Below are positions 7,524-55,472 of a stretch of DNA of 64,000 nucleotides, piece after piece. The translations under genes and the position numbers were made by a program. Origin of the DNA: Candidatus Levyibacteriota bacterium (GTDB taxonomy: Bacteria > Patescibacteriota > Microgenomatia > Levybacterales > GWA1-39-11); NCBI GenBank assembly GCA_039738415.1, contig JBCLLY010000003.1, positions 17,084-81,083 on the forward strand, given 5' to 3'. The notes under the pieces are model-generated. The model saw only the letters and a list, made by a program, of their open reading frames with translations. It had not been told where the DNA came from and ran no database searches. How positions within the stretch are numbered: position 1 is the first letter of the stretch; each line of letters opens with the position of its first letter.

Positions 7524-7590
7524 TAGATAGCAAATGGTTTATAGTAAATGGTAAATAAACTAAAAACTTAATTACATCTCTACCATACGC

Positions 7591-7618
7591 CATTTAACAT
7601 TTAACATTTAACATTTAA
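7591..7618 (+). repeat. Tandem heptamer (CATTTAA) x4 abutting the guaA start codon
   Basis: Four perfect 7-nt units at 7591-7618; ATG at 7620. Confidence 0.9.
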
Positions 7619-7619
7619 C

Positions 7620-11956: not shown

Positions 11957-12763
11957 ATGGCAAATTCTTCAAAGAATTACAAGCTCTTAGTAGCAGATTT
12001 CGATGGTACGCTGGCGGGTGTTGATCACGTAGTTACTCCCAAAGTTTCGCGTGCTGTTAAGAAATGGATTGATTCAGGCAGACATTTTACGATAGCAACA
12101 GGCAGATCATATTTAATGATAATTGATGAGTGTAAGAAAATGAATCTTTCAGTTCCTGTAATTGTTAGGGGAGGTGCTGAGGTGGTTGATCCAGTAAGCG
12201 ACAAAGTGCTCAATAGTGAGTATATGAGTAAAGTAGATATTAAAAAAATTTTAAGCGTACTGCAGAAAAATAATTTAAATTTTCTTATAGAAAAAGATGA
12301 TGTTTTATATTCCAACTTTCGGATTGAATTAGTCTTCCCAACTATCAAATATAAAAATGTATCTGAATTTAAAATTTCAGATGCCCCAAAAATTCTTGTG
12401 AAAGCAAATGAAAATAATCATAAAGAAGTTCAGATGATTATGGATGAGATTGAGAATAGGTTTAATAAAATAAATATTGCCAGAAACCATGGCGAGTTTG
12501 GATATAGATGGGATGTCACCTCTGTAAGGGCGACAAAGCTCCATGGAATTGTAAAAGTTATGGAATATCTTAATGTAGATCGCGAACAAATAGTAGGTGT
12601 AGGAGATAGTTATAATGATTTTCCGCTTTTGGCGGCAGCTGGACTTAAAGTTGCCATGGGAAATGCAAATGAAGATTTAAAGGCGATAGCAGATATGAAA
12701 GTTCCTTCACATGAGGATGATGGAGTAGCATTTCTGATAGACAAACTGTTGAGTGAGAATTAA
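11957..12763 (+). CDS. Cof-type HAD-IIB phosphatase
   Basis: LVADFDGTL (DxDGT) and GDSYNDFPLL motifs. Confidence 0.85.
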   Translation: MANSSKNYKLLVADFDGTLAGVDHVVTPKVSRAVKKWIDSGRHFTIATGRSYLMIIDECKKMNLSVPVIVRGGAEVVDPVSDKVLNSEYMSKVDIKKILSVLQKNNLNFLIEKDDVLYSNFRIELVFPTIKYKNVSEFKISDAPKILVKANENNHKEVQMIMDEIENRFNKINIARNHGEFGYRWDVTSVRATKLHGIVKVMEYLNVDREQIVGVGDSYNDFPLLAAAGLKVAMGNANEDLKAIADMKVPSHEDDGVAFLIDKLLSEN

Positions 12764-12808
12764 GAATTACGAGTTAAGAATTAAGTAGTTTTGGTATAAT
12801 AAAAAAAT

Positions 12809-13993
12809 ATGGCAAGAATTAAGATTTCCGAGTTTAGAGCAAAGAGTATTCTTTATAAATTTTTAAATAAAGATTATTCAGGAATTTCTGTTGATGTGAA
12901 TAATGATTTGGATACACAAATCTCCAATTTGAATTCGGAAAAAAAATATGTTTTGAAAGTTGATCAGGGAGTAAAGCAGAGAAAGAAAAAAGGCTTGGTA
13001 TTTTTTGATGTAACTAAAATTAGCGCAAGAGAGAAAATAAAAGAATTATCTAACAAAGGATTTTCTCATTTTATAATTGAGGAATTTTTAGAGCACGAAG
13101 GATTTAGTGAAAAATATTTTGCAGTAGAGCGCGTTCGCGAGGGGAAAAAGATTTATTATTCTACTTCCGGTGGCGTAGATATCGAGAAGAATAAAGATAG
13201 CATAAAGAGTTTGACGATTAGAAATTATGAGCAAATTAGAGAAATTGCTGAAGAATTAAACTTGGACATAAAAGTTTTTAACAGCATTTTAAATGCATTT
13301 GATGAGTATTACTTTTCGTTTTTAGAAATTAATCCCTTGGTAGTTCATAGCAATGAGTTTTATTTTCTAGATACTGCAGTTGAAGTCGATAGTGCAGCAG
13401 AGTTTTTTGTTGATAAGGCTTGGAGCAAAGAGGATTTTCGTGAAAGTGGTAAGCGGGAAAAAACTCGGGAGGAAATAGAGATAGAAAAACTTAAAGAGAG
13501 AAGTCCTGCATCGTTTAGCTATGAAATATTAAATCCAAATGGTTCAATATTTTTGCTTTTATCAGGAGGCGGTGCATCGTTGGTTATAGCGGATGAAATT
13601 TATCAGCAAGGAAAAGGAGGGGAGCTCTCAAATTACGGAGAGTATAGCGGAAATCCTAATCAAGAAGAGACATATATCTACACAAAAAATTTAATTACTA
13701 CCCTACTCCACTCCAAATCGAGTCGAAAAGCAATAATAATTTCCGGAGGAGTTGCCAATTTTACAGATATAAGAGCAACATTTAAGGGAATTATAAAAGC
13801 AATGTCTGAAGTTTCTAGCGAGTTACGGGAAAATAACACAAAAGTTTTTGTACGCCGTGGCGGTCCTTATCAGGAAGAGGGACTCAAAATGATGAGAGAA
13901 TTTTTGGAAAAAGAAGACTTGCTCGGTGTTGTTTCCGGACCCGAGATGGTTTTAACAGACATAGTAAAACCGGCGATTGAATGGATTAGTTAA
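12809..13993 (+). CDS. aclB: ATP-citrate lyase small subunit (ATP-grasp, SucC-like)
   Basis: Strong by-eye match to the ACLY N-terminal region: LEINPLVV, LNPNGSIFLLLSGGGASLVIAD, LSNYGEYSGNPNQEETY, GGVANFTDIRATFKGI, VFVRRGGPYQEEGL. Confidence 0.85.
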   Translation: MARIKISEFRAKSILYKFLNKDYSGISVDVNNDLDTQISNLNSEKKYVLKVDQGVKQRKKKGLVFFDVTKISAREKIKELSNKGFSHFIIEEFLEHEGFSEKYFAVERVREGKKIYYSTSGGVDIEKNKDSIKSLTIRNYEQIREIAEELNLDIKVFNSILNAFDEYYFSFLEINPLVVHSNEFYFLDTAVEVDSAAEFFVDKAWSKEDFRESGKREKTREEIEIEKLKERSPASFSYEILNPNGSIFLLLSGGGASLVIADEIYQQGKGGELSNYGEYSGNPNQEETYIYTKNLITTLLHSKSSRKAIIISGGVANFTDIRATFKGIIKAMSEVSSELRENNTKVFVRRGGPYQEEGLKMMREFLEKEDLLGVVSGPEMVLTDIVKPAIEWIS

Positions 13994-14376
13994 TGTCATT
14001 CTGGGGACTCAGAGCGAAGCGTGGAGGACGCCAGAATCAAAAATGAGCAAGCAAATGTATGTTTACATTATGGGAAACAATAGACCCACTCTTTATACGG
14101 GAGTAACGAACAATTTGGTTAGGAGAGTTTACGAACACAAAAATGATCTAATAGAAGGTTTTACCAAACGATATAAATTACATAGATTATTGTATTATGA
14201 GAATTTAGAAGGACAACTTGAATCAATAGTTTGGGAAAAACAAATAAAAGATATGAATAGAGCAACAAAATTAGAAATGATTAAAAGTAAAAATCCGAAC
14301 ATGAGGGATTTGTATGATGAGATAATATGATTCTGGTCAAGCTCGCCTCGCTGAGTCGAAGCGGGCCAGAATGACA
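13994..14376 (+). mobile_element. GIY-YIG cassette with terminal inverted repeats and hairpin arms
   Basis: TIRs TGTCATTCTGG (13994-14004) and CCAGAATGACA (14366-14376). Each arm self-pairs: ATTCTGG 13998-14004 with CCAGAAT 14031-14037, and 14330-14336 with 14366-14372. Inserted between the aclB stop and the aclA start. Confidence 0.75.
14043..14330 (+). CDS. GIY-YIG nuclease family protein (95 aa, UPF0213/YhbQ-like)
   Basis: YVYIM...LYTGVTNNLVRRVYEH...GFTKRY motifs. Start moved to ATG 14043, because the track N-terminus reads through the hairpin arm and overlaps aclB. Confidence 0.88.
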   Translation: MSKQMYVYIMGNNRPTLYTGVTNNLVRRVYEHKNDLIEGFTKRYKLHRLLYYENLEGQLESIVWEKQIKDMNRATKLEMIKSKNPNMRDLYDEII

Positions 14377-14383
14377 ATTTAAT

Positions 14384-16195: not shown

Positions 16196-16227
16196 TGATT
16201 AAACACTATTTCAAAATCTCTCACCTA

Positions 16228-16314
16228 TGTCATTCTGAACTTGTTTCAGAATCTATTTAATAAGTACTAGATTCCGGGTCCCTTCAGAGGCAGGCAGGCA
16301 AGCCCGGAATGACA
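16228..16314. repeat. Gene-less double-hairpin element (MITE-like) of the TGTCAT family
   Basis: Ends TGTCATTC (16228-16235) and GAATGACA (16307-16314). Hairpins ATTCTGAA 16232-16239 with TTCAGAAT 16245-16252, and ATTCCGGG 16271-16278 with CCCGGAAT 16303-16310. Confidence 0.7.
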
Positions 16315-16335
16315 TCAAATTAGACATTAGTAATT

Positions 16336-17301
16336 ATGCAAGTTTATAATAATGTTCCTCTGTCCACAATTGTTTGGTACCAAATTGGCGGAATCGCTAA
16401 TTTGGTAATAGATATTGGTTCAAGAAGGGATTTATTCGAGGCCTTGGAATATGTCGAAAACAAGAATGTAAAAGACATTTTTGTTTTGGGACTTGGGTCT
16501 AATATTCTTTTTTCCGATGAAGGATTTAAGGGAGTAATTTTCAGATTTTTAATTCAAGAGGATGGAGAAGGAGTTAGAAAAATCTCAGATACAGTAGTTG
16601 AAAGTTTTGCCGGAGAAACACTGGATAGTGTAATTCAATTTAGTTTTGATAATGGCTTGGTAGGACTTGAATGGGCAGGTGGACTTCCCGGGACAATAGG
16701 CGCTGCCGTAAGAGGAAATGTTGGAGCATTTGGTAGAGAGATAAAGGACAGCTTTGTAAAAGCACACTGCATTCGTTTGAATCCGGACAACAGTTACGAA
16801 GAACTGACATTAAATCGTGATGAAATGGAGTTCTCCTATCGTTCAAGCCGAGTTAAACAAGAAAAATTAATTGTTGTTTCTGCTCAGTTTCAACTAAAAC
16901 AAGGTACACAGGAAGAGTTACTTTATGCGCACGAAATGTATTATGCACATATCACCTACCGTCAACAAAAGCATCCCCTTGAGTACCCGAATTGTGGAAG
17001 TGTATTTAAAAATATTTCCAAAAAAGATGAGGTAGAAAAAGTCCTACAAATGTGGCCTGATATTCAAAGTTTGATTGATGAAAAATGGCACGGGAAAATC
17101 AGTATGGGGTATATTATAGACAGACTTGGGTTTAAAGGAAGGCAAATAGGTAATGCCCAGATTAGTGAGAAACACCAGAATTTTATAGTAAATCTGGGAG
17201 GAGCAAAAGCAAATGATGTAAAGGAAATAATAACAACAGTGGAGAAAAAAGTTCAAGAAGAATTTGGTTTTACACCTGAAATAGAGATAGAAATAGTCTG
17301 A
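16336..17301 (+). CDS. murB: UDP-N-acetylenolpyruvoylglucosamine reductase
   Basis: FAD-binding N-terminus (VLGLGSNILF), GLEWAGGLPGTIGAAVRGNVGAFG, and a C-terminal MurB domain. Confidence 0.9.
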   Translation: MQVYNNVPLSTIVWYQIGGIANLVIDIGSRRDLFEALEYVENKNVKDIFVLGLGSNILFSDEGFKGVIFRFLIQEDGEGVRKISDTVVESFAGETLDSVIQFSFDNGLVGLEWAGGLPGTIGAAVRGNVGAFGREIKDSFVKAHCIRLNPDNSYEELTLNRDEMEFSYRSSRVKQEKLIVVSAQFQLKQGTQEELLYAHEMYYAHITYRQQKHPLEYPNCGSVFKNISKKDEVEKVLQMWPDIQSLIDEKWHGKISMGYIIDRLGFKGRQIGNAQISEKHQNFIVNLGGAKANDVKEIITTVEKKVQEEFGFTPEIEIEIV

Positions 17302-17342
17302 AGTAAGGTCTAGTTTCTAGCGTTAAGTTATAAATAAATATT

Positions 17343-17879
17343 ATGGAAGGAAAGGTAGTGTTTGAAAACAACGAAATTATTATTCGATATCCCCAGAAAG
17401 ATGATTTAGGAGAGATGATTGGTTACATCAACACGTTGTCTTTAGAGAGAACTTTTATAAGATTTCAAGGTGAACAAGTCACTATATCTGAAGAGAAACA
17501 ATATCTTGATAATGTCCTAAGCAAAATATCAGATAAAAAAGAAGTAATGCTTTTAGTCTTTGCTCGCGATAAATTAGTTGGAAATTCCTCAATTGAGATG
17601 TTTGATAAAACTGAAAGGCATAGAGGGCTTTTGGGAATATCAGTTGCAAAAGAATATCGTGGAAAAGGTATTGGGAAGCTACTCATCAATAAAGTATTTG
17701 AAGAAGCAAAAAAGGAATTAGCAAATTTGAAAATAGTTACATTAAGCGTTTCTCCAATAAATTTCTTAGCACAAAATCTTTACAAAAAATTCGGATTTAT
17801 CGAATATGGAAAATTACCAAACGGTATTTTTAGAAACAATAAATACGAAGATGAAATTTTGATGCATAAAGAGATCTAG
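17343..17879 (+). CDS. GNAT family N-acetyltransferase
   Basis: Acetyl-CoA motif YRGKGIGKLL; typical size. Confidence 0.85.
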   Translation: MEGKVVFENNEIIIRYPQKDDLGEMIGYINTLSLERTFIRFQGEQVTISEEKQYLDNVLSKISDKKEVMLLVFARDKLVGNSSIEMFDKTERHRGLLGISVAKEYRGKGIGKLLINKVFEEAKKELANLKIVTLSVSPINFLAQNLYKKFGFIEYGKLPNGIFRNNKYEDEILMHKEI

Positions 17880-19319: not shown

Positions 19320-19419
19320 TAGAATCCCCTTGACAGCATTTCTTGACACTTCTTAACTTATTATGGACGGAACAGTTATGAAAAAAGAAGAGATGAAAAA
19401 ATTCAGGGAGAGGACTAAA

Positions 19420-19965
19420 TTAATTATTTGAAAAATCTTTTTTTAGGTCATTTCTGTAGTCTTTTAGTAATTTTTTTATCTTCGGATCTATAACTACTGT
19501 GCAATAAGAATAATCTTTATTTTTTTCATAAAAATTCTGGTGATAGTTCTCAGCCTTATAAAAATATGAAAAAGGCTCAATCATTGTAACGGCGTCTTTT
19601 TGGTAAGGACTATTTTTATTGTATTCCTTTTTTATTTTCTCAGCGGTTTCTTTTTGTTTTGAGTTATGATAAAAAATTGCTGATCTGTATTGTGTTCCGA
19701 TATCTGGGCCCTGTTGATTTAGCGTTGTAGGGTTATGTGTGTAGAAAAATATTTGTACAAGTTTTTCATAAGAAATTATATTTGGGTCAAATATAATCTG
19801 AATTGTTTCAGCGTGATTTGTATTTCCCATAGAGATTTGATCATATGATGGATTAACGATATTGCCTCCAGTATAACCAGATTTTACATCAATAATTCCT
19901 TTAAGCCTTTTAAAAATTGCTTCAGTACACCAGAAACATCCGCCTGCCAATGTAGCCTTTTCCAT
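19420..19965 (-). CDS. msrA: Peptide methionine sulfoxide reductase A
   Basis: N-terminal ATLAGGCFWCTEAIF catalytic motif. Confidence 0.95.
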   Translation of the reverse strand: MEKATLAGGCFWCTEAIFKRLKGIIDVKSGYTGGNIVNPSYDQISMGNTNHAETIQIIFDPNIISYEKLVQIFFYTHNPTTLNQQGPDIGTQYRSAIFYHNSKQKETAEKIKKEYNKNSPYQKDAVTMIEPFSYFYKAENYHQNFYEKNKDYSYCTVVIDPKIKKLLKDYRNDLKKDFSNN

Positions 19966-20032
19966 TAGCTTAATTATATCAGTTCAGGATAGTGAAATTT
20001 GTAATTTATGTGATTACTTATATAATATCTTT

Positions 20033-28278: not shown

Positions 28279-28362
28279 CTATGTATTTCTGTATCACCAA
28301 GGACCCTGAGAGAACGAAGTGAGTCGATGGGTCAATATGACAAAATATATCAAGTTTTCAGT

Positions 28363-31451: not shown

Positions 31452-31480
31452 TGTCATCGTCATCCCGATTAAATCGGGAT
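31452..31480. repeat. Single-arm relic of the TGTCAT hairpin family
   Basis: TGTCATCGTCATCCCGAT-TAA-ATCGGGAT; palindrome 31462-31469 with 31473-31480. Confidence 0.5.
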
Positions 31481-31520
31481 CTCGCACATTTTAAAATTAA
31501 GTTTTAGACAAAAGTATTGA

Positions 31521-31547
31521 GCCTGCTTAAGATAAGCAGGTTTTTTT
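31521..31547 (+). terminator. Rho-independent terminator-like hairpin between tuf and rpsJ
   Basis: CCTGCTTA (31522-31529) pairs with TAAGCAGG (31533-31540), followed by T7. Confidence 0.7.
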
Positions 31548-31564
31548 GTTAAAATAAGGTAAAT

Positions 31565-32030: not shown

Positions 32031-33017
32031 ATGTACAGTATTTTTGTGATAGAGGATTACTTTTATAAAACCAATTCGCATATTCAAGAGTACGCATATC
32101 GTATAAAAACATATAAGTCTCTTTTTGAAAAATTGCCTAGATTACCCCAAATTCAGGAAAATTTACTTAGAAAATCTGCATTAAAAAGTTCGTTATTTTC
32201 AGCAAGAATTGAGGGCAATAGTCTTGAATTAAGCGAAATTGAATTAGGGTTTTCCACTACCAGCGAAAAAAAGGAGGTAGAACAAATATTTTCGACCTTA
32301 AAATATGTGCGAAGTTTGAATACTGCTTTATCCAAGGAAATTGTTTGGGAAATTCATAGTCGAATAATGGATGGTTTGACAAGTGATTTAGGTAAGTTTA
32401 GATCCGAACAAACTGCAATATTTAATACAGCAGGTGTTGCAGTTTATCTACCTCCCCCACCTCAAAAAATAGCCGGATTGCTTCAGAATTTTCTGGAATA
32501 TACAAATGACTCGACCGATGATCTTACAAAAATTGCAATTGCGCACCTTGCTTTCGAAAAAATCCATCCATTTTTTGATGGAAACGGAAGAGTTGGAAGG
32601 ATTCTTATGAATTGGCATTTATCGCACTTAGGATATGGATTTGCGGGACTTATGTCTTTTGAGGAATATTTGGAAAACAATCGAGAGCAATATTACAACG
32701 GATTATCACTGAAAGGGAAAGATATTACACAGTTTGTCGAGTTTATTTTAGAAGCTATAGCTATAAGTAGTGAAAAAGTAATTCTTGAATTGCAAGAAAA
32801 AAAGGAAGAGAAAATTGAAGACTTTCTTCTTCCAAGAAGAACAGAGATCTTGTTAATAGTTAGAGAACATACCATGATGAGTTTTGACCAGATAAAAAGG
32901 AGGTTTATGGGTGTTAATACGCGTACATTACATTATGATTTGGAATATCTTATGAAAAAGAACCTAATTAAAAAATTGGGAAGCACAAATAGAGCTCTCT
33001 ACTCGCCTGTTGAGTAA
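32031..33017 (+). CDS. Fic family protein (AMPylase-type) with N-terminal inhibitory motif and C-terminal wHTH
   Basis: Fic core HPFFDGNGRVGR. SARIEGN matches the (S/T)xxxE(G/N) inhibitory helix. Confidence 0.9.
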   Translation: MYSIFVIEDYFYKTNSHIQEYAYRIKTYKSLFEKLPRLPQIQENLLRKSALKSSLFSARIEGNSLELSEIELGFSTTSEKKEVEQIFSTLKYVRSLNTALSKEIVWEIHSRIMDGLTSDLGKFRSEQTAIFNTAGVAVYLPPPPQKIAGLLQNFLEYTNDSTDDLTKIAIAHLAFEKIHPFFDGNGRVGRILMNWHLSHLGYGFAGLMSFEEYLENNREQYYNGLSLKGKDITQFVEFILEAIAISSEKVILELQEKKEEKIEDFLLPRRTEILLIVREHTMMSFDQIKRRFMGVNTRTLHYDLEYLMKKNLIKKLGSTNRALYSPVE

Positions 33018-53487: not shown

Positions 53488-53526
53488 CTCTTCGACTCGG
53501 TCAATAAATTGACCTCGCTCAGAGTC

Positions 53527-53578
53527 TCCGACGATGAGGAAGGACTTATTGAGAAAGACTTTATTCTTGCAAAAAATA
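53527..53578 (+). pseudogene. Fragment of a diverged pterin-4a-carbinolamine dehydratase 3' end
   Basis: Reads SDDEEGLIEKDFILAK versus THDEGGITEKDFILAK in the intact gene. There is a 21-nt exact match, 53550-53570 = 54034-54054. Confidence 0.65.
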
Positions 53579-53797
53579 CTAGAGCGAGGCCGACCGCGTG
53601 TCGCCATAGCTTTAGCGGTGGCGCAAGGCCGAGCTCTTCGACAGGCTCAGGGTAAACGGATAGAAGGCGATGCGAAGGGGTTGCGTTCGCCTACCTTTGC
53701 GAAAATGACGTTCTAATTTTTCGATATAGCTCGACATTGTTAATTTCCTTAAATCTTTTTTTGAAAAAATAATAACAAGCTGTTATAGTTGTGTTGC

Positions 53798-54076
53798 ATG
53801 ACTAGACTTTCACTTGATGAAGTAAATACAAAACTAAAACAAATTAAAGGGTGGGATTTGATTGAAGAAAAAGAAATTAAGAAAACTTTTACGTTTAAAA
53901 GTTTCTTGCAGTCAATTGAGTTTGTAAATAAAATTGCACCAATTGCAGAAAAATTAAACCACCATCCAAATATATTAATACAATATAATATGGTAACTTT
54001 AACTCTTTCTACTCATGATGAGGGGGGAATTACTGAGAAAGACTTTATTCTTGCCAAAGAAATTGATAGTTTATAA
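53798..54076 (+). CDS. Pterin-4-alpha-carbinolamine dehydratase
   Basis: W...I.K.F.F..F...F.N.IA..AE..NHHP pattern (KLNHHPNILIQYNMVTLTLSTHD). ATG 53798. Confidence 0.85.
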   Translation: MTRLSLDEVNTKLKQIKGWDLIEEKEIKKTFTFKSFLQSIEFVNKIAPIAEKLNHHPNILIQYNMVTLTLSTHDEGGITEKDFILAKEIDSL

Positions 54077-54091
54077 ATAAACCTATTGATT

Positions 54092-54823
54092 ATGGAAACT
54101 TCTTCAGAGACAAAACGAAGTCTTGCAGTATTTGATATTGACGGAACAATATTCCGCTCGAGTCTTTTAATAGAGCTTACAAATGCTTTAGTTAGTGAAA
54201 AAATATTTCCAAATAAAGCTCGGGATGAGATAGAAAATTATTTTAAGCTGTGGTTAAACCGAGATGGAGGATATGAGGACTATATTAATCAAGTCATAAA
54301 AGTTTACAACAAAAATATTAAAGGATGTAAGGAGGTTGATGTCGAGAATATCGCAGAAGAGGTCTTAAATAGAGAAAAGAAAAAAGTATATAGATACACA
54401 CGGTATTTAATAAAAAAACTTAAGAAAGAAAACTATTTTTTGTTTGCAATCTCCGGTTCGCCAGGTCATATCCTAACTAGTTTTGCAAAAGATATAGGAT
54501 TTGATAAATACTTAGGTGGTTATTATGAAGTTGTGAACGGTAAATTCACAGGAGAGCAACCCTATGGAAATCCTGCAGTAGATAAGAAAAAAACACTAGA
54601 GGATTTTTTAGAAAAAAACAAAAATGTTTTTGATTTAAAATCTGCAATTGGTGTTGGAGACACGGAGTCAGATATAGCATTTTTAAAAATGGTAGGAAAT
54701 CCTATTGCATTTAATCCTAATAAGAAACTTGCGGATTACGCGAAGAAAAATAAATGGCAAATAATAGTTGAGCGAAAGGATGTAATTTATGACATTTCTA
54801 AGTTTGATTTTATGAATACGTAA
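54092..54823 (+). CDS. HAD-IB family hydrolase (SerB-like)
   Basis: LAVFDIDGTIF and GVGDTESDIAFL motifs. ATG 54092. Confidence 0.82.
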   Translation: METSSETKRSLAVFDIDGTIFRSSLLIELTNALVSEKIFPNKARDEIENYFKLWLNRDGGYEDYINQVIKVYNKNIKGCKEVDVENIAEEVLNREKKKVYRYTRYLIKKLKKENYFLFAISGSPGHILTSFAKDIGFDKYLGGYYEVVNGKFTGEQPYGNPAVDKKKTLEDFLEKNKNVFDLKSAIGVGDTESDIAFLKMVGNPIAFNPNKKLADYAKKNKWQIIVERKDVIYDISKFDFMNT

Positions 54824-54847
54824 TCGTCCAGGAATAGTCAAAGAAAA

Positions 54848-54915
54848 TGTCATTGCGAGCGTAGCGAAGCAATCTATAGAGATCGCCACGGCTACCTTGC
54901 AGCCTCGCGATGACA
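54848..54915. repeat. Gene-less double-hairpin element of the TGTCAT family
   Basis: Ends TGTCATTGCGAG and CTCGCGATGACA. Hairpins ATTGC 54852-54856 with GCAAT 54869-54873, and ATCGC 54882-54886 with GCGAT 54907-54911. Confidence 0.7.
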
Positions 54916-54989
54916 AAGTGTTGCCAAATCGTGGACGGTTACATGGATACTGCTTGACATATTTTCAGAATAAGGATTTAATATTATTA

Positions 54990-55472
54990 ATGGTAAAAAT
55001 TTATCCCGCTTTATTAAGAATAAGTATTGGTTTTATTTTGCTTTGGGCTTTTTTTGATAAGCTTTTAGGACTTGGTTTTGCAACTGAGGCTTCTAAGGCA
55101 TGGCTAGTTGGTAATTCGCCGACATCTGGTTATCTTCAGTTCGCAACGCAAGGGCCTTTTGCTAACTTCTTTCAGAGTCTTGCTGGAAATCCTATTGTTG
55201 ATTGGCTATTTATGCTGGGTCTTTTAGGTGTAGGAACAGCGTTTGTTTTGGGCATCGCATTAAAATTCGCGTCTTTGGCAGGCGCTACGATGATGGCTCT
55301 TATGTATCTGTCGGCTTTCCCTCTATCAAACAATCCCATTATAGATGAACATGTTATTTATGCTCTGTTGATGTTATTTTTGGCTCAATTGGATGCGGGG
55401 AATATTTTTGGATTTGGAAAGGCTTGGGCAAAAAGCGGAATAGTTAAAAAACTTGCGTTTCTCCAAAATTAA
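54990..55472 (+). CDS. DoxX family membrane protein
   Basis: Four-TM profile, LLRISIGFILLWAFFDKL. Start moved to ATG 54990, because the track N-terminus reads through the hairpin element. Confidence 0.75.
   Translation: MVKIYPALLRISIGFILLWAFFDKLLGLGFATEASKAWLVGNSPTSGYLQFATQGPFANFFQSLAGNPIVDWLFMLGLLGVGTAFVLGIALKFASLAGATMMALMYLSAFPLSNNPIIDEHVIYALLMLFLAQLDAGNIFGFGKAWAKSGIVKKLAFLQN

Follow-up and report, generated by a model that had tools for sequence, protein, structure and literature searches.

Tagged hairpin repeats inside and outside a GIY-YIG nuclease cassette of a Candidatus Levyibacteriota bacterium: probable members of the CGTC/TGTC-tagged REP superfamily and recognition sites of Ssn nucleases

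Results

Tagged hairpins and a nuclease gene

A stretch of 64,000 nucleotides from a Candidatus Levyibacteriota bacterium (contig JBCLLY010000003.1 of assembly GCA_039738415.1), referred to here as the window, carries a family of short tagged hairpins together with a small gene, ssn, for a predicted GIY-YIG nuclease. The gene lies between aclB and aclA in a cassette bracketed by two of the hairpins, two gene-less hairpin pairs stand at 16228-16314 and 54848-54915, and a solo unit is located 3' of tuf. The seven units, three tag-outward pairs and one solo, obey a single grammar, namely an unpaired 5' YGTC tag, a stem with A·T as its outermost pair, a loop, the closing stem and then a C (YGTC-AT...AT-C; Table 1). 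We consider it highly probable that they are Ssn-related motifs (SRMs) of the CGTC/TGTC-tagged superfamily of repetitive extragenic palindromic (REP) sequences, serving as oriented single-stranded DNA (ssDNA) sites for a GIY-YIG nuclease of the Ssn type.

The components of this identification have been described separately. Ssn proteins are GIY-YIG proteins of about 94 amino acids (cd10448) that bind a hairpin repeat only as ssDNA, on one strand only, and cut a few nucleotides upstream; in Neisseria the repeat is the NTS, CGTCATTCCCGCGMAVGCGGGAATCYRG (Chenal 2025, Nat Commun, PMC11893778). Cleavage depends above all on the three bases 5' of the palindrome and binding on the C that directly follows it, and a changed palindrome sequence with the structure kept abolishes activity in Neisseria, while ssn genes are typically bracketed by SRMs, on both sides in 42% of homologues (Chenal 2025, PMC11893778). 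The CGTC-tagged REP superfamily, of which dRS3 is a member, has a tag that is often TGTC and stems that start with A and then T; its units occur mostly as tag-outward "HH dimers", often heterodimers, and no transposase is known for them (Di Nocera 2013, PMC3733652). The same authors note that atypical members escaped their search.

A preliminary description of this DNA had not recognised the units as a known family. They have already been described, as CGTC-tagged REP HH dimers and as SRMs, and the double-hairpin elements 16228-16314 and 54848-54915 are HH dimers of the REP literature. The original observation is real for three of the five loci listed there and for the gene-bearing member, and the proposal of one family that unites the latter with gene-less pairs through a shared terminal signature is borne out by the seven units on one grammar.

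Table 1. Coordinates of the hairpin units, the nuclease gene and the associated repeats in the window
Feature	Position	Strand	Properties
Direct repeat TTAAT bracketing the cassette	13990..13994 and 14379-14383	.	uninterrupted aclB/aclA junction in L087 reads TCTTAATATG
Left hairpin unit (SRM) of the nuclease cassette	13994..14038	+	TGTC, 7-bp stem ATTCTGG/CCAGAAT, 26-nt loop containing GCGAAGC, tail C; DNA fold z -2.4
ssn-like gene, 95-aa single-domain GIY-YIG nuclease (predicted)	14043..14330	+	Pfam PF01541, E 1.1e-10, residues 5-76
Right hairpin unit of the cassette	14329..14376	-	stem ATTCTGG again, 29-nt loop, overlaps ssn stop codon; fold z -1.7
Left arm, gene-less pair 16228-16314	16228..16253	+	TGTC, 8-bp stem ATTCTGAA/TTCAGAAT, 5-nt loop, C; model E 3.9e-6
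Right arm, pair 16228-16314	16270..16314	-	8-bp stem ATTCCGGG/CCCGGAAT, 24-nt loop
Solo unit 3' of tuf	31458..31481	+	CGTC-ATCCCGAT-TAA-ATCGGGAT-C; fold z -3.9; model E 0.014
123-nt element carrying the 54848 pair	54820..54942	.	inverted ends GTAATCGTCCA and TGGACGGTTAC, 10/11 match, GTAAYCGTCCA
Left arm, second gene-less pair	54848..54874	+	TGTC-ATTGC-GAGCGTAGCGA-GCAAT-C; model E 7.6e-5
Right arm, second gene-less pair	54881..54915	-	stem ATCGC/GCGAT, nested hairpin within loop; model E 0.025

The units were first picked up by a scan of both strands for TGTCA directly abutting a stem, which returned six ends. The tag is TGTC in six of the seven units and CGTC in the remaining one, every stem starts with AT, and the GTC of the tag and the tail C are invariant throughout. 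Perfect stems measure 5-8 bp and loops 3, 5, 11, 20, 24, 26 and 29 nt. Six units sit in the tag-outward pairs 13994-14376, 16228-16314 and 54848-54915, and the confirmed units fold as ssDNA better than their shuffles (z -1.7 to -3.9).

Pair 16228-16314 has the ends TGTCATTC and GAATGACA and was correctly described as a double hairpin with an 18-nt gap: two 8-bp hairpins (16232-16252 and 16271-16310) are separated by 18 unpaired nucleotides (DNA-fold z -3.2), and its arms are not reverse complements of each other. The second pair, 54848-54915, with the ends TGTCATTGCGAG and CTCGCGATGACA, likewise consists of two arms, here with a 6-nt spacer, and can as a whole be folded into one long hairpin (-15.8 kcal/mol, z -2.8). 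The half-element placed at 31452-31480 does exist as a single unit, although the CGTC at 31458 serves as its tag and the TGTCAT at 31452 is incidental; the unit is identical in the compared assemblies L090 and L091 (handles beginning with L denote the sequences compared).

As had been stated, the units are GC-rich islands in AT-rich spacers, with 45-58% GC against 19-28% in their spacers and 36% in the window. Spurious extensions of open reading frames (ORFs) occur at both sites for which they were claimed. At the GIY-YIG gene, a TTG-initiated ORF (13977..14330) runs through the left hairpin of the cassette, and the NCBI gene call in the sister assemblies L081 and L088 comprises only 91 amino acids, corresponding to window 14055-14330. 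At 55 kb, the start of the called gene is at 54990, but the ORF 54897..55472 already begins within the right arm; its DoxX match is weak (E 0.086).

All units are located in spacers between co-directional genes and so are likely transcribed, and REP elements elsewhere stabilise upstream mRNA (background cited in PMC3733652). The hairpins might accordingly act as RNA, as transcript-end stabilisers, processing sites or attenuators, with the nuclease link being incidental, yet several observations make this very unlikely. No Rfam family is matched at the gathering threshold and no T-run follows any arm; the tuf spacer has its own T-run terminator at ~31519-31548, a separate structure downstream of the solo unit. 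Tag-outward pairs occur in both orientations, so only one arm would show its tag in any transcript. The conserved unpaired GTC and C, moreover, match determinants of DNA binding and cleavage, and Neisseria SsnA does not bind the RNA form of its motif (Chenal 2025, PMC11893778).

Enrichment over chance and selection on the stems

The hexamer TGTCAT is not itself enriched, with 26 exact sites on both strands of the window against 27 expected. It is the combination with a hairpin that exceeds chance, as the preliminary description had proposed for TGTCAT termini relative to shuffled sequence: a perfect stem of at least 5 bp closing just before a C follows directly at 6 of the 26 sites, compared with a mean of 0.48 and a maximum of 3 in 200 runs of dinucleotide shuffling. 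The AT-closed grammar GTCAT...ATC yields 7 matches against 1.63 +/- 1.28 expected, a number reached in none of 300 shuffles, and three tag-outward pairs are seen where 0.21 are expected. Looser grammars were dropped, as GTCA with a 4-bp stem and TC gave 11 matches, barely above the 5.8 in shuffles, and a version allowing one stem mismatch gave 11 against 7.7. AT-rich stems form by chance, so that discrimination requires either AT closure of the grammar or conditioning on the tag.

A covariance model (R1) built solely from foreign 29-nt short-loop copies recovers the window arms 16227-16255 (E 4e-6), 54847-54876 (8e-5), 31457-31483 (0.014) and 54879-54916 (0.025). It misses three long-loop arms (13994, 14376 and 16314), and its negatives are informative for short-loop copies only. 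Two further loci of the preliminary description, a supposed half-element at 28300-28342 and a supposed degenerate pair at 53597-53711, do not belong to the family: they fold no better than chance (z -0.1 and +0.3), show blastn-short similarity at control level and have no covariance-model match. The surrounding region 53489-53790, just after tRNA-Pro, is GC-rich and has sister-strain indels of 18, 11 and 47 nt, the 47-nt one being a hairpin; it holds fragments resembling long-loop units (GCTCAGGGTAAAC), none of which passes the family tests.

In the alignment of foreign copies, G3, T4, C5, A6, T26 and C27 are invariant. Pair counts from the alignment termed A2 are circular by construction, and covariation therefore rests on a test that presupposes no pairing, in which the segments GTCA(NN)CTGAG...GAAG(NN)TC are fixed and the free dinucleotides occupy stem positions 2-3. 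Among 68 distinct copies, all of one subtype, 64 have complementary dinucleotides there, with six pair types, where independence predicts 23.6, and the stem is therefore under selection.

Selection had been suggested to act on structure rather than on sequence, and only the first half of this suggestion stands, since arms are near-identical across phyla. The left arm at 16228 matches a copy in Portnoybacteria (L014) at 26 of 27 positions, and its L014/L043 variants carry a compensatory change from T·A to G·C. For the left arm at 54848, identity is 29/30 to a Woesebacteria copy (L037), with L038, L071 and L023 also matching, and 26-27/27-28 to copies in Elusimicrobiota, Fibrobacter and Nostoc genomes. 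Across phyla, the nuclease gene is accompanied by only a handful of recurrent stem types. Arm sequence is thus conserved as well as the hairpin structure.

The nuclease and its homologues

PF01541 is the sole domain found in the 95-residue protein, whose ATG lies 4 nt downstream of the left unit. Against the UPF0213 structure 1ZG2 the protein gives a weak match only (E 3e-4), and no NCBIfam model matches it. A scan of one genome per species provided 80 homologous loci, with proteins 48-67% identical to that of the window, from groups of the candidate phyla radiation, Chloroflexota, Cyanobacteria, Ignavibacteriota, Clostridia, Proteobacteria and others. In 13 aligned homologues, Y8, Y18, G20, R28, H32 and N84 are invariant and E65 is nearly so, with a mean column identity of 67%. 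An indirect link to the characterised system is provided by L004, the protein of which is 54% identical to that of the window (tblastn, E 4e-30): the 28-nt NTS consensus is matched exactly four times in its flanks, and one of these copies begins 46 nt upstream of the gene.

Flanks could be tested at the 76 loci with enough flanking sequence. An inward-facing unit is present upstream at 59, downstream at 60 and on both sides at 51 of them; at the closest homologue, the flanking units read TGTCATTCTGG...CCAGAATC and GATTCTGG...CCAGAATGACA. Across the 80 loci there are 387 matches to the grammar compared with 91 in shuffled sequence, and 62 gene-less outward pairs (gap of at most 120 nt, mostly 11-37 nt) compared with 1. 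The hairpin family is thereby tied to one nuclease family across phyla.

The stem types sharpen this relationship. In the window, the gene-flanking arms carry ATTCTGG, whereas the gene-less arms carry ATTCTGA, ATTCCGG, ATTGCGA, ATCGCGA and ATCCCGA. At the homologous loci the types recurring beside ssn are ATTCTGA (12), ATTGCGA (11), ATTCTGG (5) and ATTCCCG (3); ATTCTGG is shared by the three closest homologues (L001-L003), where it also lies beside the gene. All stem types found in the gene-less arms of the window also occur next to ssn in one or another foreign genome, as exemplified by ATCCCGA, the type of the solo unit, in L007. The 64-kb window contains no second ssn gene. The idea that the gene-less pairs are "derivatives" of the gene-bearing element is not supported by this distribution of stems.

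Classical REP sequences and REPINs served by RAYT, an HUH Y1 tyrosine transposase, and IS200/IS605 ends have the same general architecture: hairpins that are short and oriented, pairs in inverted arrangement, and two hairpins enclosing one small nuclease gene. That the units belong to such a system is nevertheless hardly credible, as they are tagged with YGTC in place of GTAG, the gene between them encodes a GIY-YIG protein and not a Y1 transposase, with the remaining ORFs of the window not screened exhaustively for such an enzyme, and no RAYT was found flanked by CGTC-type repeats (Di Nocera 2013, PMC3733652).

Insertion of the cassette and presence or absence of pairs

Distant relatives share the gene order aclB-aclA-murB (aclA 57-79% identical at the amino acid level). 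The aclB-aclA gap measures 1-24 nt in all four of them and 390 nt in the window, 383 nt of which are cassette. The ssn cassette is thus an insertion between the two genes, for which the bracketing TTAAT repeat (Table 1) may represent a target-site duplication. Among the cassettes compared, the sequence 5' of each tag is pyrimidine-rich.

The presence or absence of gene-less pairs at orthologous spacers, proposed earlier as a comparison, was followed for both pairs. Pair 16228-16314 is missing from L083 and L087, where aclA and murB overlap, and it therefore sits in added DNA. The aclA/murB junction (window 16196-16335) is an insertion hotspot, with additional DNA at 2616-2978 in L082, ~1485-1840 in L085 and 4290-4890 in L086; L082 and L085 carry there a gene for a 120-aa 23S_rRNA_IVP protein (PF05635) with its own flanking inverted repeats, and L086 an unrelated ORF.

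Sister assemblies with 97-99% identity to the window, which include GCA_039731645.1 and GCA_039738455.1, extend the comparison to close strains (L088/L093 and L081/L089/L090/L092). All of them contain the ssn cassette and the 16228 pair, the right arm of which is unchanged in L081 and L088. The right-arm loop of the cassette, by comparison, is 5 nt long in L088 and 29 nt in the window, owing to a 24-nt indel at 14341-14364. This GC-rich loop module (CTCGCCTCGCTGAGTCGAAGCGGG; GCTCGCCTCGCTGAGTCGAAGCGG) is missing at L088 10287, and a near-identical module recurs in L028 and within the loop of another L088 pair (2714-2767); either a nested mini-insertion or gene conversion between units may account for the module. 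L088 also has a further gene-less pair upstream of guaA that is absent from the window, which has a (CATTTAA)n tandem repeat directly upstream of guaA at 7580-7619.

The 54848 pair is the one that differs most clearly between strains. It lies within the 123-nt element 54820-54942, which is flanked by an 8-bp direct repeat (7/8; ATGAATAC at 54812-54819 and ATGGATAC at 54943-54950) and is inserted in the last codons of a HAD gene, the original gene end being pushed downstream. Element and pair are absent from L092 and L093, which read ...TTTTATGGATACTGCTTGA. One pair is thus polymorphic between near-identical strains, and gain or loss of pairs has been recent. No other copy of the element's outer inverted end was found in the window or in the 93 loci compared.

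On a larger scale, five cassettes from Clostridia/Christensenellaceae are 86-94% identical, and their flanks are unrelated in 8 of 10 pairwise comparisons and non-syntenic in the remainder. Homology stops about 2 nt from both tags in several comparisons (L015 with L045, L015 with L022); in some others it continues for as much as ~36 nt more, or ends early on one side. The tag-to-tag gene cassette is thus a discrete unit, relocatable into unrelated genomic contexts. In one Melioribacter genome (L052, L053 and L055), three ssn cassettes are 99-100% identical, and the repeat extends past the tags to outer inverted ends (CAATGYTGTCAGGTTAAG / CTTAACCTGACAGCATTG), so that the cassette is nested in, or extended into, a larger repeat.

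These two carriers bear on the possibility that the pairs are ordinary miniature inverted-repeat transposable elements (MITEs), in which TGTCAT...ATGACA would be double-stranded terminal inverted repeats for a DDE-type transposase encoded elsewhere and the GIY-YIG gene a passenger. The 123-nt element, with its inverted ends, direct repeat and empty sites in two sister strains, and the larger Melioribacter repeat are what such an explanation would predict. Among the loci of the window, MITE hallmarks are unevenly distributed: present at the 123-nt carrier, absent at 16228-16314 and limited at the gene cassette to the 5-nt TTAAT, a single case. The outer ends of the two carriers, however, are not TGTC tags and differ between the two. 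Each arm, furthermore, folds on itself with a covarying stem, which double-stranded terminal repeats do not need, and the arms of one pair are often not reverse complements, as illustrated by 16228 and 16314. The tags and the hairpin grammar are kept across phyla beside one nuclease family, homology ends at the tags in several foreign cassette comparisons, and there is no general target duplication among cassettes. We therefore judge this explanation of the units to be improbable.

Other strain differences were noted in passing. Near window position 54958, L092 (18015-18035) and L093 (18071-18091) have a 21-nt insertion not present in the window (GCCCGATTTAATCGGGCTTGA), consisting of a hairpin and a CTTGA duplication; its 15-nt core is the reverse complement of the solo-unit core 31462-31476, and it adjoins a pre-existing TGTCAAG. 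In L088 (12780-12803; window 16858), an in-frame 24-nt insertion (ACAACCCGTTCGGCAAGCTCAGGG) extends murB to 329 amino acids from 321, and 11 nt of this insertion (CGGCAAGCTCA) recur as an indel in the region after the tRNA. Gene-sized differences from L088, L092 and L093 occur at window 12746-12806, 17295-17876, 19323-19979 and 54055-54120: L088 has a DUF5615/DUF433 pair that may be a toxin-antitoxin system, is without the acetyltransferase gene and has a different gene in place of msrA, while L092 and L093 have a 228-aa ORF without a Pfam match that is absent from the window. A Fic/DOC-family gene (PF02661, E 1.5e-22) at 32031-33017, directly after rpsJ, breaks the usual order of the S10 ribosomal-protein genes.

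Discussion

Based on the shared grammar, the nuclease gene bracketed by units and the characterised members of the Ssn family, we propose the following mode of action. The substrate of the ~95-aa GIY-YIG nuclease would be single-stranded DNA, as it arises at the replication fork, in uptake or transfer or through cruciform extrusion. The enzyme would bind the hairpin on the strand that carries the tag and would then cut a few nucleotides to the 5' side of this tag. An outward pair would present one substrate per strand, with both cuts placed just outside the pair. Ssn, or its cuts together with host repair or recombination, could then spread the cassette and the gene-less pairs, by analogy with REP/RAYT and REPINs. 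In the cell, incoming or replicating ssDNA bearing the motif would be cut or restricted and recombination thereby modulated, as may be deduced from the work of Chenal 2025.

Several points weigh against assigning the units to Ssn in this manner. The biochemistry comes from characterised Ssn members, and the clade of the window is known here from sequence alone. The published SRM pattern, HGTCWYN(0-2)YYVSBRHN(0-5)WNVSBRGN(0-2)RNCYNB, matches none of the seven window units, even with a 30-nt loop, and only 13 of the 80 loci; this pattern is a search heuristic centred on NTS-like copies and not a biochemical definition. The units depart from it in their longer loops, AT-richer stems or deviating tails and are thus variants that lie outside the heuristic. 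A single ssn gene is present in 64 kb and its own arms differ in stem from the gene-less arms, so that paralogues elsewhere in the genome may be needed for the other stem types. With regard to spread, no consistent target duplication is found across 52 other cassettes (2.68 vs 2.48 +/- 0.11), and we know of no strand-transfer chemistry for a GIY-YIG nuclease. At the clean strain polymorphism 54820-54942, finally, the boundaries are formed not by TGTC tags but by separate 11-bp inverted ends and an 8-bp direct repeat, and the element bears the signature of a conventional transposase-mobilised MITE with the pair as passenger.

A more far-reaching proposal is that the SRM-ssn-SRM cassette moves autonomously and represents a mechanistically new class of mobile element, with a GIY-YIG ssDNA nuclease replacing the transposase and the gene-less pairs as non-autonomous, REPIN-like forms. 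It is partly supported by the acl insertion (aclB and aclA abut in four relatives), by homology that ends at the tags in several comparisons among the near-identical cassettes of five genomes and by the presence or absence of pairs among 97-99% identical strains. We regard it as a tentative and rather doubtful possibility; if true, the CGTC-tagged REP superfamily as a whole would gain the mobilising enzyme that it has lacked. The window bears on how CGTC-type REPs spread without a transposase through the acl insertion, the tag-ended homology, the presence or absence among strains and a pair inside an element bounded by terminal inverted repeats, and three sister assemblies offer a ready system for excision and insertion junctions.

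The assignment of the units to the SRMs also has practical consequences. The family accounts for GC-rich spacer islands, spurious ORF extensions and many "hypothetical" peptides, translated from such hairpins, in the annotation of low-GC uncultured bacteria. To our knowledge, Ssn nucleases are the only known site-specific ssDNA endonucleases, and every variant of a cognate motif might provide ssDNA tools with a new specificity. The window supplies one predicted nuclease with an ATTCTGG-stem, long-loop motif that is missed by the published pattern, and current SRM censuses therefore undercount the family.

Compared with the Ssn/SRM system as described, the window shares a single-domain GIY-YIG protein (95 against ~94 amino acids) bracketed by two inward-facing hairpins of inverted orientation, a core, YGTC-AT...AT-C, whose invariant positions equal the determinants identified by mutagenesis, and further copies dispersed in intergenic DNA; the 54%-identical homologue in L004 is accompanied by the exact NTS. 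It differs in that the stems are shorter and AT-richer, loops reach 29 nt and several stem types coexist near a single ssn gene, and the system resides in a low-GC, uncultured bacterium that possesses ATP-citrate lyase and is not a proteobacterium.

The agreement with the CGTC-tagged REP superfamily, which includes Neisseria dRS3 and Rickettsia RPE-4/-6, comprises the unpaired CGTC/TGTC tag, the A-then-T stems, the short unpaired tail, the tag-outward pairs, the frequent heterodimers of differing stems and loops and the lack of an associated transposase gene. The spacers of that superfamily, typically ~20-100 bp but as short as a few bp in certain families, may be counted as a further likeness to the pairs of the window. 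The described stems, however, are 8-9 bp long with loops of 4-5 nt, as compared to 5-8 bp and 3-29 nt here, and the described tail is CCA, whereas that of the window is C followed by variable bases. No link to a GIY-YIG gene was drawn by Di Nocera 2013.

With REP/BIME-RAYT systems and REPINs, the window has in common one small nuclease gene between two oriented hairpins, non-autonomous inverted doublets in spacers and a recognition proposed to take place on ssDNA. The enzymes are different, as RAYT is an HUH Y1 tyrosine transposase acting through a covalent intermediate and Ssn a hydrolytic GIY-YIG nuclease, and so are the tags (GTAG and YGTC). Mobility driven by RAYT, furthermore, has population evidence, whereas Ssn-driven mobility is proposed by analogy only. 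The Neisseria intergenic mosaic elements (NIMEs), finally, which we take to be short segments bounded by inverted dRS3/NTS-type hairpins in intergenic DNA, resemble the gene-less pairs in this respect. They presumably form long arrays of 50-150-bp repeats near surface-protein genes, whereas the window displays isolated pairs with 6-18-nt spacers beside housekeeping genes.

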